Part shown: in pieces, positions 2,404 through 28,672 of the stretch
Layout: each line of letters starts with the position of its first letter
How positions within the stretch are numbered: position 1 is the first letter of the stretch
From: Enterobacteria phage vB_EcoM_IME340
Length of the DNA: 64,000 nt
Sequence record: MH051916
Reading direction: 5' to 3' (one strand)
Position numbers and translations under genes: made by a program
Notes under the pieces: model-generated
The model's input: only the letters and a program-made list of their open reading frames with translations
Told to the model about the DNA's origin: nothing
The model's database searches: none

Positions 2404-3342
2404 ATGTACAATATTAAATGCCTGACCAAAAACGAACAAGCTGAAATTGTTAAACTGTATTCAAGTGGTAATTATACTCAGCAGGAATTGGCTGATTGGC
2501 AAGGTGTATCGGTTGACACAATCCGTCGTGTTTTGAAAAATGCTGAAGAAGCTAAACGCCCTAAAGTTACTATTAGCGGTGATATCACAGTTAAAGTTAA
2601 TAGCGATGCAGTTATTGCTCCAGTTGCTAAATCTGACATTATTTGGAATGCATCTAAAAAATTCATTTCAATTACTGTTGACGGTGTAACTTATAACGCA
2701 ACTCCTAATACTCATTCAAACTTCCAGGAAATTCTTAATCTGCTTGTAGCGGATAAGCTGGAAGAAGCGGCACAAAAAATTAATGTTCGTCGCGCTGTTG
2801 AAAAATATATTTCCGGTGATGTTCGAATTGAAGGTGGAAGCCTGTTCTATCAAAATATTGAATTGCGGTCTGGTTTAGTTGATCGTATTCTCGATTCGAT
2901 GGAAAAAGGTGAAAACTTTGAATTTTATTTTCCGTTCTTGGAAAATCTGCTGGAAAACCCGAGTCAAAAAGCGGTATCTCGACTCTTTGATTTCTTGGTA
3001 GCAAACGATATTGAAATTACAGAAGACGGTTACTTCTATGCTTGGAAAGTAGTTCGCAGCAATTACTTTGACTGTCACTCAAATACCTTTGATAACAGTC
3101 CTGGTAAAGTAGTTAAAATGCCACGTACTCGTGTGAATGACGATGATACACAAACTTGTTCTCGCGGTCTGCATGTGTGTTCTAAATCTTATATTCGTCA
3201 CTTTGGCAGTTCAACCAGCCGAGTTGTAAAAGTTAAAGTACATCCTCGCGATGTAGTATCAATTCCGATTGATTACAACGATGCTAAAATGCGTACCTGC
3301 CAATACGAAGTAATTGAAGACGTTACTGAACAATTTAAATAA
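2404..3342 (+). CDS. rIIB: rIIB protein
   Basis: 312 aa as in T4 rIIB; directly downstream of rIIA with strong SD. Confidence 0.9.
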   Translation: MYNIKCLTKNEQAEIVKLYSSGNYTQQELADWQGVSVDTIRRVLKNAEEAKRPKVTISGDITVKVNSDAVIAPVAKSDIIWNASKKFISITVDGVTYNATPNTHSNFQEILNLLVADKLEEAAQKINVRRAVEKYISGDVRIEGGSLFYQNIELRSGLVDRILDSMEKGENFEFYFPFLENLLENPSQKAVSRLFDFLVANDIEITEDGYFYAWKVVRSNYFDCHSNTFDNSPGKVVKMPRTRVNDDDTQTCSRGLHVCSKSYIRHFGSSTSRVVKVKVHPRDVVSIPIDYNDAKMRTCQYEVIEDVTEQFK

Positions 3343-22209: not shown

Positions 22210-22525
22210 TATTCGTCCGGTCGATGAGGCCGGGCTTTCAGAAAAAGAACTTTCCCTTAAAAAGGAAAAAGATGAAATCGCAAAGCTTCTTGATCGACAA
22301 GAAAATGGATTTATTATTGAAAAAATGGTAGAAGAGTTTGGAATGAGTTATCTTGAAGCTACGACAGCATTCTTGGAAGAAAACTCTATTCCTGAAACTC
22401 AATTTGCTAAATTTATTCCTTCGGGTATAATTGAAAAAATTCAGTCAGAAGCTATTGACGAAAATCTTTTACGTCCTTCTGTTGTTCGTTGTGAAAAAAC
22501 TAATACATTAGATTTTCTGCTATGA
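22187..22525 (+). CDS. 33: late transcription co-activator gp33
   Basis: 112 aa from ATG at 22187 (ORF track start is TTG). Confidence 0.8.
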   Translation: MTQFSLNDIRPVDEAGLSEKELSLKKEKDEIAKLLDRQENGFIIEKMVEEFGMSYLEATTAFLEENSIPETQFAKFIPSGIIEKIQSEAIDENLLRPSVVRCEKTNTLDFLL

Positions 22526-23175
22526 TTAAACTCCGCATGCCTGCTGGTGGTGAAAGATACATTGATGGTAAATCAGTTTATAAATTATACTTAATGATAA
22601 AACAGCATATGAATGGAAAGTATGATGTAATTAAGTATAATTGGTGCATGCGGGTGTCTGATGCCGCTTATCAAAAGCGAAGGGATAAGTATTTTTTCCA
22701 GAAGTTATCAGAAAAATATAAATTAAAGGAACTTGCTTTAATTTTTATAAGTAATTTGGTTGCTAACCAAGATGCTTGGATTGGCGACATCTCTGACGCT
22801 GATGCACTTGTGTTTTATCGTGAATATATCGGACGCTTAAAGCAAATTAAATTTAAGTTTGAAGAAGATATTCGCAATATTTACTATTTTAGTAAAAAAG
22901 TTGAAGTTTCTGCTTTTAAAGAAATCTTTGAATATAATCCAAAAGTTCAATCAAGTTATATTTTTAAACTACTTCAATCGAATATAATTTCGTTTGAAAC
23001 GTTTATCTTGCTTGATTCGTTTTTAAATATAATTGATAAACATGATGAACAGACTGATAATTTAGTCTGGAATAATTATTCTATAAAGTTAAAGGCTTAT
23101 AGAAAAATTTTAAATATTGATTCACAGAAAGCTAAAAGTGTTTTCATTGAAACTGTGAAATCTTGTAAGTATTAA
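22522..23175 (+). CDS. 59: helicase loader gp59
   Basis: 217 aa as in T4 gp59. Confidence 0.85.
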   Translation: MIKLRMPAGGERYIDGKSVYKLYLMIKQHMNGKYDVIKYNWCMRVSDAAYQKRRDKYFFQKLSEKYKLKELALIFISNLVANQDAWIGDISDADALVFYREYIGRLKQIKFKFEEDIRNIYYFSKKVEVSAFKEIFEYNPKVQSSYIFKLLQSNIISFETFILLDSFLNIIDKHDEQTDNLVWNNYSIKLKAYRKILNIDSQKAKSVFIETVKSCKY

Positions 23176-23274: not shown

Positions 23275-24183
23275 ATGTTTAAACGTAAATCTACTGCTGA
23301 ACTCGCTGCACAAATGGCTAAACTGGCTGGAAATAAAGGTGGTTTTTCTTCTGAAGATAAAGGCGAGTGGAAACTGAAACTCGACAATGCGGGTAACGGT
23401 CAAGCAGTAATTCGTTTTCTTCCGTCTAAAAATGATGAACAAGCACCATTCGCAATTCTTGTAAATCACGGTTTCAAGAAAAATGGTAAATGGTATATCG
23501 AAAATTGTTCATCTACCCACGGTGATTACGATTCTTGCCCAGTATGTCAATACATCAGTAAAAATGATCTGTACAACACTGATAATAAAGAGTACAGCCT
23601 TGTTAAACGTAAAACTTCTTACTGGGCTAACATTCTTGTTGTAAAAGACCCGGCTGCTCCAGAAAACGAAGGTAAAGTATTTAAATACCGTTTCGGTAAG
23701 AAAATCTGGGATAAAATCAATGCAATGATTGCGGTTGATGTCGAAATGGGTGAAACTCCGGTTGATGTAACTTGCCCGTGGGAAGGTGCTAACTTTGTAC
23801 TGAAAGTTAAACAAGTTTCCGGATTTAGTAACTACGATGAATCTAAATTCCTGAATCAATCTGCGATTCCAAACATTGACGATGAATCTTTCCAGAAAGA
23901 ACTGTTCGAACAAATGGTTGACCTTTCTGAAATGACTTCTAAAGATAAATTCAAATCGTTTGAAGAACTGAATACTAAATTCGGTCAAGTTATGGGAACT
24001 GCTGTGATGGGCGGTGCCGCTGCAACTGCTGCTAAGAAAGCTGATAAAGTTGCTGATGATTTGGATGCATTCAATGTTGATGACTTCAATACAAAAACTG
24101 AAGATGATTTTATGAGCTCAAGCTCTAGCAGTTCATCTAGTGCTGATGACACGGACCTGGATGACCTTTTGAATGACCTTTAA
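23275..24183 (+). CDS. 32: ssDNA-binding protein gp32
   Basis: 302 aa, zinc-binding region [10 protein letters not shown], acidic C-terminus. Confidence 0.95.
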
Positions 24184-25268: not shown

Positions 25269-26095
<827 letters not shown>

Positions 26096-26115
26096 AATAA
26101 CGCGTGGCGGAAAAT

Positions 26116-26463
26116 ATGAACTTTAATTATTACCCTATTCTATTAGAAAAAGACGCGAAACAACCAAAATGGCAGGGTCCTCAGTTTATTAAAGGCGTCT
26201 ATCAATTAGTAGTTCCTAAAGACAAGATTTATAGCAGTTGTTTCACTGAATCCGCTTGCAGTATTTTCGGTAATAGTTCTCCGTATTGGAATTTTGATAT
26301 AAAGCTGGATAGAAATATCGATATTTGGTTGAAAGCTATGGATATTGGCAATATCACGTTTGATGAGAATAATTATCATATTATTGGTCGTTTTTCCAAA
26401 CGTGGTAAAGAATTATATTTCACGCCTGAAATTGAAAGAAAATTTGACGCTAAACCGTATTGA
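26116..26463 (+). CDS. hypothetical protein encoded by insert between frd and td
   Basis: 115 aa from ATG (ORF track 26104 start is GTG); no recognisable motif. Confidence 0.5.
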   Translation: MNFNYYPILLEKDAKQPKWQGPQFIKGVYQLVVPKDKIYSSCFTESACSIFGNSSPYWNFDIKLDRNIDIWLKAMDIGNITFDENNYHIIGRFSKRGKELYFTPEIERKFDAKPY

Positions 26464-26508
26464 TTATTTAGCTTCATAAAATGTATTATAATTTATATAA
26501 GGTACTAA

Positions 26509-27057
26509 ATGAAACAATACCAAGATTTAATTAAAGACATTTTTGAAAATGGCTATGAAACTGATGACCGAACAGGCACAGGAACAATTGCTTTGTTCGG
26601 TACTAAATTACGCTGGGATTTAACTAAAGGTTTTCCTGCAGTAACAACTAAGAAGCTCGCCTGGAATGCATGCATTGCTGAGCTACTTTGGTTTTTATCA
26701 GGAAGCACAAATGTCAATGATTTACGATTAATTCAGCATGATTCATTAATTCAAGGCAAAACAGTCTGGGATGAAAATTACGAAAATCAAGCAAAAGATT
26801 TAGGATACCATAGCGGTGAACTTGGTCCAATTTATGGAAAACAGTGGCGTGATTTTGGTGGTGTAGACCAAATTATAGAAGTTGTTGATCGTATTAAAAA
26901 ACTGCCAAATGATAGGCGTCAAATTGTTTCAGCATGGAATCCAGCTGAACTTAAATATATGGCATTACCGCCTTGTCATATGTTCTATCAGTTTAATGTG
27001 CGTAATGGCTATTTGGATTTGCAGTGGTATCAACGATCAGTAGATGTTTTCTTGGGT
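26509..27057 (+). CDS. td: thymidylate synthase, exon 1
   Basis: 183 codons ending ...VDVFLG at a U before in-frame TAA; classic TS motifs. Confidence 0.92.
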
Positions 27058-28073
27058 TAATTGAGGCCTGAGTATAAGGTGACTTATACTTGTAATCTAT
27101 CTAAACGGGGAACCTCTCTAGTAGACAATCCCGTGCTAAATTGTAGGACTGCCCTTTAATAAATACTTCTATATTTAAAGAGGTATTTATGAAAAGCGGA
27201 ATTTATCAGATTAAAAATACTTTAAACAATAAAGTATATGTAGGAAGTGCTAAAGATTTTGAAAAGAGATGGAAGAGGCATTTTAAAGATTTAGAAAAAG
27301 GATGCCATTCTTCTATAAAACTTCAGAGGTCTTTTAACAAACATGGTAATGTGTTTGAATGTTCTATTTTGGAAGAAATTCCATATGAGAAAGATTTGAT
27401 TATTGAACGAGAAAATTTTTGGATTAAAGAGCTTAATTCTAAAATTAATGGATACAATATTGCTGATGCAACGTTTGGTGATACATGTTCTACGCATCCA
27501 TTAAAAGAAGAAATTATTAAGAAACGTTCTGAAACTGTTAAAGCTAAGATGCTTAAACTTGGACCTGATGGTCGGAAAGCTCTTTACAGTAAACCCGGAA
27601 GTAAAAACGGGCGTTGGAATCCAGAAACCCATAAGTTTTGTAAGTGCGGTGTTCGCATACAAACTTCTGCTTATACTTGTAGTAAATGCAGAAATCGTTC
27701 AGGTGAAAATAATTCATTCTTTAATCATAAGCATTCAGACATAACTAAATCTAAAATATCAGAAAAGATGAAAGGTAAAAAGCCTAGTAATATTAAAAAG
27801 ATTTCATGTGATGGGGTTATTTTTGATTGTGCAGCAGATGCAGCTAGACATTTTAAAATTTCGTCTGGATTAGTTACTTATCGTGTAAAATCTGATAAAT
27901 GGAATTGGTTCTACATAAATGCCTAACGACTATCCCTTTGGGGAGTAGGGTCAAGTGACTCGAAACGATAGACAACTTGCTTTAACAAGTTGGAGATATA
28001 GTCTGATCTGCATGGTGACATGCAGCTGGATATAATTCCGGGGTAAGATTAACGACCTTATCTGAACATAATG
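27058..28073 (+). ncRNA. self-splicing group I intron of td (1016 nt)
   Basis: starts TAATTGAGGCCTGAGTATAAGG after exon GGGT, ends ...ACATAATG (terminal G); exon 2 resumes in frame; length equals T4 td intron. Confidence 0.88.
27189..27926 (+). CDS. I-TevI: GIY-YIG homing endonuclease I-TevI (intron-encoded)
   Basis: 245 aa, GIYQIKN...VYVGSA GIY-YIG motif, C-terminal zinc finger and DNA-binding domain. Confidence 0.92.
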   Translation: MKSGIYQIKNTLNNKVYVGSAKDFEKRWKRHFKDLEKGCHSSIKLQRSFNKHGNVFECSILEEIPYEKDLIIERENFWIKELNSKINGYNIADATFGDTCSTHPLKEEIIKKRSETVKAKMLKLGPDGRKALYSKPGSKNGRWNPETHKFCKCGVRIQTSAYTCSKCRNRSGENNSFFNHKHSDITKSKISEKMKGKKPSNIKKISCDGVIFDCAADAARHFKISSGLVTYRVKSDKWNWFYINA

Positions 28074-28385
28074 CTACCGTTTAATATTGCATCATATGCT
28101 ACGTTAGTTCATATTGTAGCTAAGATGTGTAATCTTATTCCAGGAGATTTGATATTTTCTGGCGGTAATACTCATATCTATATGAATCACGTAGAACAAT
28201 GTAAAGAAATTTTGCGTCGTGAACCTATGGATTTATGCGAATTACAATTAAAATTTCCAGATGAATTTGATGAATGGGACACAGAATCACAGGTATTTTG
28301 GTTGAGTCAATTCGCAAAGCCGCATAATTTTGTTCTTAACAACTATGTATCTCACCCGCCAATTAAAGGAAAGATGGCGGTGTAA
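28074..28385 (+). CDS. td: thymidylate synthase, exon 2
   Basis: LPFNIASYATLVH... continues TS frame; total 286 aa. Confidence 0.92.
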   Translation, partial: LPFNIASYATLVHIVAKMCNLIPGDLIFSGGNTHIYMNHVEQCKEILRREPMDLCELQLKFPDEFDEWDTESQVFWLSQFAKPHNFVLNNYVSHPPIKGKMAV

Positions 28386-28408
28386 TTTTAATTTAATTGA
28401 GAGGATAT

Positions 28409-28672
28409 ATGATTTTACGATTTAAAGATACTTCTGGTGTAGTTCTTTTTACACTTCCTAACCCAAGCGAGTTAGAAGTTCCAGGACCAAATCAGCCTAT
28501 TATCATTTATGGCAAAAAATATTATACTCATAAAATGACTCGTGAGTATTTTGATAATAAAATTTCCACAGTTAAAACTTCTTCTGATTGTTACTATGAT
28601 ATTACTGTTTTAACGGAAAAACAATATGACGAATTATCACCGCGCGGGCCGTCTATGCCAGGTAGTGAATAA
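28409..28672 (+). CDS. hypothetical protein (nrdA.x position)
   Basis: 87 aa from ATG with GAGGA SD. Confidence 0.4.

Follow-up and report, generated by a model that had tools for sequence, protein, structure and literature searches.

The frd–td junction of the window, the whole 64,000-nucleotide stretch of Enterobacteria phage vB_EcoM_IME340 (record MH051916) that was analyzed, contains ORF115, a real accessory gene of the PHROG 1928 family that is maintained by selection. In the history that we favor, with a probability of about 0.6, a T-even ancestor lost this gene, a later lineage regained it from a Kanagawavirus-like phage in an event that stranded a td start codon behind frd, and the new allele then spread, the gene being co-expressed with frd and td and perhaps encoding a basic binding protein. 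The variation at the junction is the ordinary accessory-gene plasticity of the periphery of T4-like genomes, and no new kind of system. On this history the junction would be a worked example of gene loss, of re-acquisition by recombination, and of a start codon left stranded.

Layout of the frd–td junction

The window belongs to a Tequatrovirus (T-even phage) genome, and its gene order is 59, 32, frd.3, frd.2, frd.1, an 81-aa ORF, frd, ORF115, td with its I-TevI intron, and nrdA. The frd gene (25514–26095, + strand), which was defined from the list of ORFs and from frd in annotated matching records, encodes a dihydrofolate reductase of 193 aa that is 96% identical in amino acid sequence to T4 Frd and ends with ...VYK-TGA, the TGA codon lying at 26093–26095 inside ATGAAATAA. 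The frd stop is overlapped by a mini-ORF, ATG AAA TAA (26092–26100, + strand), which is read directly from the sequence, and which the outgroup junctions described below suggest to be a relic. After a left spacer of 20 nt follows ORF115 (26116–26463, + strand; alias RB32ORF229c), defined by the ORF list, an HMM match and an AlphaFold model. Its product is a β-rich protein of 13.6 kDa with a pI of 8.5, which has 115 aa when translated from the ATG, or 119 aa with the GTG at 26104 as the start. A GGCGG sequence (26106–26110, + strand), located 5 nt upstream of the ATG, resembles a Shine–Dalgarno sequence and could serve as one. The right spacer of 45 bp (26464–26508, + strand) holds promoter-like motifs and the td Shine–Dalgarno sequence AAGG, and it leads to exon 1 of the thymidylate synthase gene td (26509–27060, + strand), which starts with ATGAAACAATAC and was defined from the ORF list and from the same split annotation in JK08 and T4. 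The exon-1 ORF extends into the group I intron that encodes I-TevI (27189–27926), while exon 2 is located at about 28074–28385. The sequence details given in the original prediction, which were the frd stop with its ATG AAA stopped at once, the 115-aa ORF and the restart of td at 26509, all hold.

The overlap of frd and td in T4, which that prediction had cited, was also correct, as the two genes overlap by 4 nt (ATGA) in NC_000866, and M12742 is among the records with the T4-type junction. This overlap is said to have been known since the T4 frd–td sequences of Purohit and Mathews in the J Biol Chem of 1984. The window and T4 have in common the 3′ end of frd (...GTaTATAAATGA) and the 5′ end of td (ATGAAACAATACC), but in the window these ends are parted by 417 bp with ORF115, and the ATG over the frd stop opens only a two-codon mini-ORF.

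The segment missing from T4-type junctions was delimited with a T4/T2 alignment and a table of junctions as 26098–26514 (+ strand), although its boundaries slide by 9 bp within a repeat, so that 26089–26505 is equivalent. A three-way alignment of the window, T2 and T4 showed that the 417 bp are present in the window and in T2, and exactly missing from T4. Hence, the extra DNA of about 410 bp that was predicted to lie exactly at the frd/td junction corresponds to 417 bp bounded by two exact copies of TAAATGAAA. The left copy of this 9-bp direct repeat (26089–26097, + strand) consists of the frd stop and two td-like codons and matches the frd/td junction of T4, AnYang, VR26 and RB69, while the right copy (26506–26514, + strand) holds the functional td start. 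The length of the repeat alone is not significant, because TAAATGAAA is a common gene-start motif, with 12 copies in the window versus 3.6 expected, and because a second exact direct repeat of 9 nt occurs by chance within the same 480 bp. The weight of the duplication comes instead from its position and from the comparison with outgroups.

Alleles of the junction in Tequatrovirus

ORF115 is 100% identical in amino acid sequence to a T2 ORF that has the same position and the same flanking repeats, and the nucleotide differences between the two are only synonymous. The T2 record AY310907 from 2003 leaves this ORF unannotated, later records list it as hypothetical protein RB32ORF229c, and the annotations of hundreds of genomes already include it as a hypothetical protein. 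The original prediction described the ORF as unknown, which is right as far as a known function is concerned, but the gene is not new, given the identical T2 ORF in the same place, its assignment to PHROG 1928 and its name RB32ORF229c. Of the finding that the prediction said would refute it, a matching ORF of known function at this position in close relatives, the match and the position are thus true, but the known function is not.

Three alleles are present at this junction in Tequatrovirus. The T2-type allele with ORF115 was found in about 354–361 Tequatrovirus records (361 phage records carry ORF115 at an amino acid identity of at least 90%), which is about two-thirds of the sequenced T4-type coliphages, or about 70% within Tequatrovirus. 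The second allele, with a share of about one-quarter (~135 records, including JK08 and pSs-1), carries an unrelated 68-aa ORF, ORF68 (PHROG 9550), which is ATGA-coupled to both neighbors. The overlap without an insert makes up about 6% (~31 records: T4 isolates, RB55/59, vB_EcoM_112, HY03, SG1, G28, JEP6 and F1), and is mostly confined to T4 and phages closely related to it. The frd/td overlap that textbooks describe for T4 is thus a minority state among close relatives, most natural T-even phages hold there a strictly conserved small gene whose predicted fold is unmatched, and about one-quarter hold another gene. Both ORF115 and ORF68 would be reasonable and inexpensive choices for phenotyping by knock-out and knock-in in T2 and T4.

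ORF68 (3059–3265 of the JK08 locus, L005) encodes a protein with a pI of 10.3, which is 81% identical to the product of orfC in a metagenomic Kanagawavirus-like array (L009, 3670–3879), and this points to an exchange like that of ORF115. Its other homologs are in Klebsiella T4-like phages (79%) and in Phapecoctavirus (43%), an unrelated myovirus group, and therefore ORF68 moves between unrelated groups of myoviruses. In the record of Shigella phage SH7 two places match ORF68; the one at 140071–140226 of NC_054942.1 is a partial match to residues 16–68 (79%) where the record annotates no feature, and this alternative cargo gene may have decayed there. In REP1 and Ge15, which have ORF115, the spacer before td is only 15 bp long, with about 30 bp gone (~26467–26496 in window coordinates; locus L008, 1129–1145).

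Expression signals around ORF115

ORF115 would be read together with frd and td in an early or middle transcription unit of nucleotide-metabolism genes, and its homologs in other genera are translationally coupled to frd/td. The original prediction also gave td a promoter-like sequence of its own, which is a weak claim. The σ70-like sequence in the spacer, TTGATT (26460–26465) and TATTAT (26484–26489) separated by 18 nt, is a weak match that agrees with the consensus at 9 of 12 positions, and 12 such sites were counted in the region versus 6.1 ± 2.8 in shuffled sequences. The spacer also contains AGCTTCA (26470–26476) followed 12 nt later by TAATTT (26489–26494), which would be MotA-box-like by the T4 middle-promoter consensus. 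A td-proximal promoter would be optional at best, because the piece of about 30 bp with these motifs is missing in REP1. A search of the region for terminator-like sites found none.

Homologs in the frd–td interval of other genera

Genes of PHROG 1928 are located between frd and td in Kanagawavirus IME523 (two genes), Jiaodavirus Mineola, Winklervirus CHI14 (two genes) and Tegunavirus phiR1-RT, and the metagenomic contigs L009 and L010 carry frd-A-B-C-td arrays with genes of this family. More distant genera have one to three genes of the family between frd and td, which are often ATGA-coupled, and the tblastn matches of ORF115 have DHFR and TS annotated under or beside them. PHROG 1928 is thus a native occupant of the frd–td interval in many Tevenvirinae genera, rather than arbitrary cargo. 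In Kanagawavirus, Winklervirus and the metagenomic contigs the family is present as tandem overlapping A and B paralogs that are about 25–30% identical (L003, 2498–3176; L009, 3001–3673; L014, 2084–2780), a sign that the gene was duplicated in tandem at the frd–td locus long ago. The B-type paralog of IME523 also matches the PHROG 1928 profile (4.9e-36), and no paralog of ORF115 was found within the window.

The arrays of IME523, L009 and L010 occupy the same locus as ORF115, and their orfA is its closest homolog, with 63%–66% amino acid identity to ORF115. They differ from the window in that their genes are packed with ATGA overlaps, they include a B paralog and their Frd is extended at the C terminus, whereas ORF115 stands alone between spacers.

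The ORF115 protein and its possible roles

The HMM of PHROG 1928 matched ORF115 with E = 8.4e-36, residues 4–111 aligning to profile positions 2–125 of 126. The family is small, with only 17 cluster representatives in a HMMER all-against-library comparison, all of them from T4-like phages. Selection on the gene was assessed in five loci with four distinct sequences, and the pairs of alleles (window, T2, AugustSocin, REP1) differed by 4–15 synonymous and 0 nonsynonymous substitutions. These counts indicate that ORF115 is under strong purifying selection. The invariant residues of the family are Q16, W19, G27, G91, K95 and G97, with a conserved IIGRFxKxG hairpin containing the basic GRFxKxG, and no catalytic-type residues are among the invariant positions.

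AlphaFold2 with the family alignment predicted eight strands and one helix with a pLDDT of 90.9 and a pTM of 0.84. The model had no structural match in the PDB, and its matches in BFVD were only uncharacterized proteins from T4-like phages of Pectobacterium, Serratia, Erwinia and Aeromonas. The similarity to OB folds was below significance. The protein sequence matched nothing in Pfam (E ≤ 10), in NCBIfam, or in a profile search of PDB sequences. We suggest, with low confidence, that ORF115 could be a small, basic, nonenzymatic protein with a β-barrel-like fold that probably binds nucleic acid, a nucleotide or another protein. It is read as nonenzymatic because of the missing Pfam/NCBIfam match, the invariant residues that are not of catalytic type, and the pI of 8.5. 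As T4 is without the gene, ORF115 is dispensable in the laboratory. The long-term synteny would favor an accessory role in nucleotide-precursor metabolism, and the allelic polymorphism, dispensability and horizontal exchange would favor a role in host interaction or anti-defense.

ORF115 could also be cargo for anti-defense or superinfection exclusion, as the original prediction suggested, or for another host interaction, with the frd/td junction serving as an accessory hotspot under varying host selection. This explanation, which is compatible with the insertion proposed below, is possible though rather unlikely. It would account for three alleles at one junction in a single genus, for the presence of ORF68 in the unrelated Phapecoctavirus, which is typical of mobile accessory genes, and for a protein that is small, dispensable, horizontally acquired and yet strongly conserved, and whose fold is without a known relative. 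On the other hand, the gene is stable, syntenic and often translationally coupled between two nucleotide-metabolism genes in many genera, and its family is seen only in T4-like phages. The protein is not acidic, and so it is not a DNA mimic, and it has no similarity to solved anti-defense proteins in the PDB. Searches with Pfam, PDB profiles and structures detected no similarity of ORF115 to known phage anti-defense proteins that have Pfam models or solved structures, such as Ocr, Arn, Tad1/2, Acb1/2 and Dmd, and no literature was found that studies ORF115 or ties it to any defense system.

The more specific proposal that the junction is a recombination hotspot of exchanged cargos, at which ORF115 would be an anti-defense or inter-phage competition factor of a new fold that binds a nucleotide-derived signal or nucleic acid, we consider speculative and unlikely. 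If true, such a role would explain why ORF115 is strictly conserved in about 70% of the T-even phages isolated from nature, although T4 can do without it.

Direction of change at the junction

The nearest genera by Frd are Dhakavirus (AnYang, 81% identical to the window), Gaprivervirus (VR26, 65%) and Mosigvirus (RB69/TP13, 58%), and in all of them frd and td overlap as in T4, with the junction sequence GT(A/G)TA(T/C)AA-ATG-AAA. Because the overlap is common to these three genera, the ATG-AAA-TAA of the window is most simply explained as a relic of a td start. Frd ends with ...VYK in T4, AnYang, VR26, RB69/TP13 and the window, while it has a longer C terminus where the family gene is native.

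The identities of orfA and Frd across pairs of phages were 79/81%, 50/61%, 38/59% and ~30/45%, which shows that orfA normally evolves faster. The order is reversed between the window and L009/L010, with 63%–66% for orfA versus 47%–48% for Frd. In the neighbor-joining tree of orfA the window groups with the two contigs as (window,(L009,L010)) with 100% bootstrap, whereas in the tree of Frd the grouping is (IME523,(L009,L010)) with 99%, and the window is placed inside the T-even clade with 100%; both trees are built from few taxa and short proteins. The window, L009 and IME523 are equally distant from the outgroups Mineola and CHI14, and therefore an acceleration of rate is not the cause of this pattern. 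These comparisons support a phylogeny of ORF115 that is incongruent with that of Frd, as expected of horizontal acquisition. The prediction of a cassette inserted at the junction, behind a stranded td start, is thus supported by the T4-like overlap shared by the nearest genera and by the conflict between the orfA and Frd trees.

In the history that we propose, the ancestor of Tequatrovirus, Dhakavirus, Gaprivervirus and Mosigvirus would have lost the gene once, which would have shortened Frd to ...VYK and created the ATGA overlap of frd and td. Later, recombination with a T4-type phage resembling Kanagawavirus would have brought an A-type copy back into a Tequatrovirus lineage. The right crossover would lie in or at the conserved 5′ end of td and the left join just past the second td codon, so that ATG-AAA was stranded behind frd, where it now reads ATG AAA TAA, and TAAATGAAA was duplicated. 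The ORF115 allele would then have spread through Tequatrovirus by homologous recombination, and the outcome would be the three present alleles, ORF115, the unrelated 68-aa ORF, and nothing. The spread was probably helped by recombination, and possibly proceeded via co-conversion with the nearby homing of I-TevI and SegG. The junction of T4 itself may have kept the ancestral state or may have arisen secondarily by deletion between the repeats, the latter because the T2-type allele is the majority in Tequatrovirus and the T4-type is rare.

Several observations bear on the age and the source of the acquired copy. No donor with more than 66% amino acid (68% nucleotide) identity to ORF115 was found outside, which counts against the acquisition history. 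The GC content of ORF115 (33%) and its GC3 (29%) are ordinary for Tequatrovirus and carry no compositional trace of a transfer. Since the best outside match is at 68% nucleotide identity and the composition is normal, the acquisition would not be recent. No convincing alignment was obtained when the 45-bp spacer was compared with orfB and orfC, and the 20-nt left spacer with the 3′ end of frd, for remnants of a donor. If the insertion is true, the donor is expected to have ...TAACGCGTGGCGGAAAAT upstream of orfA, which would mark the left breakpoint.

It is quite unlikely that ORF115 was instead inherited vertically from the ancestor of Tevenvirinae, and that T4, Dhakavirus, Gaprivervirus and Mosigvirus each deleted it between TAAATGAAA repeats, recreating the ATGA overlap. 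Many genera do have the family at this locus, most Tequatrovirus records carry the T2-type allele, with the T4-type found mainly in T4 and its close kin, the 9-bp direct repeats, one copy of which is kept in T4, are just what a microhomology deletion requires, and ORF115 shows no anomaly of composition. However, this course of events needs four independent deletions that all yield the same junction, it leaves unexplained why Frd ...VYK-ATGAAA is already present in T2-type phages, and it conflicts with the nesting of the window in the Kanagawavirus-like clade in the orfA tree (100% bootstrap) as against the Frd tree. A simple deletion in T4, which the Kanagawavirus and Jiaodavirus homologs alone would suggest, is less likely in view of the overlap in RB69/TP13/VR26/AnYang and of the orfA/Frd incongruence.

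Comparison with other mobile and optional genes

The nearest known counterpart of the junction is that of T2/RB32, where RB32ORF229c is the same gene in the same position with the same flanking repeats; the window, unlike T2, also has the I-TevI intron in td. The seg and mob homing endonuclease genes are likewise optional genes located between core genes, with presence or absence varying among close relatives, but ORF115 has neither a nuclease domain nor a nuclease fold, and its family is a long-term resident of the locus that does not roam.

Two records of the BASEL collection (MZ501052, MZ501066) and a Klebsiella phage record label the protein a "putative homing endonuclease", according to which ORF115 would be a free-standing or degenerate endonuclease gene that inserted itself. 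This we regard as very improbable. The site between two conserved genes recalls seg/mob insertions, and the GVY...IYS string in ORF115 is superficially similar to such enzymes, but the alignment of the family shows no conservation of these residues, no GIY-YIG, HNH or LAGLIDADG domain was matched in Pfam at E ≤ 10 nor any family in NCBIfam, and the insert is without terminal inverted repeats. The label was rejected, as no nuclease domain was detected by sequence and no nuclease fold in the predicted structure.

Insertion of a transposon or IS-like element was also rejected, because the ends of the insert are without terminal inverted repeats; ORF115 showed no similarity to transposases in PHROGs and Pfam. 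The 9-bp duplication could be a short target-site duplication, but the motif is that of a common gene start and chance repeats of equal length are nearby.

Although AT-rich phage DNA gives many spurious ORFs, the idea that ORF115 is a chance open frame in a noncoding spacer can practically be dismissed in view of the 0 nonsynonymous versus 9–15 synonymous differences between alleles, the homologs in other genera down to 26%–32% identity, and the confident fold prediction.

Polymorphisms in neighboring genes

Other differences from relatives were observed close to the junction. Gene 59 of the window (22522–23175) is directly followed by gene 32 (23275–24183), with no segG between them, unlike in T4. 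The td gene contains a group I intron (27058–28073) with the I-TevI ORF (27189–27926), as in T4. An Rfam search of 25900–28500 at gathering thresholds reported no RNA family, including Intron_gpI for td, and the miss of the td intron is presumably due to its interruption by I-TevI. T2 has ORF115 but an uninterrupted td, which means that the intron and ORF115 assort independently. Between frd.1 and frd, the window has an 81-aa ORF (PHROG 3183; 25269–25514, + strand) that is ATGA-coupled to the frd start. This ORF is present in T2, JK08 and pSs-1 and missing from T4 (71-bp gap) and from RB69, and it is a second presence/absence polymorphism flanking frd.
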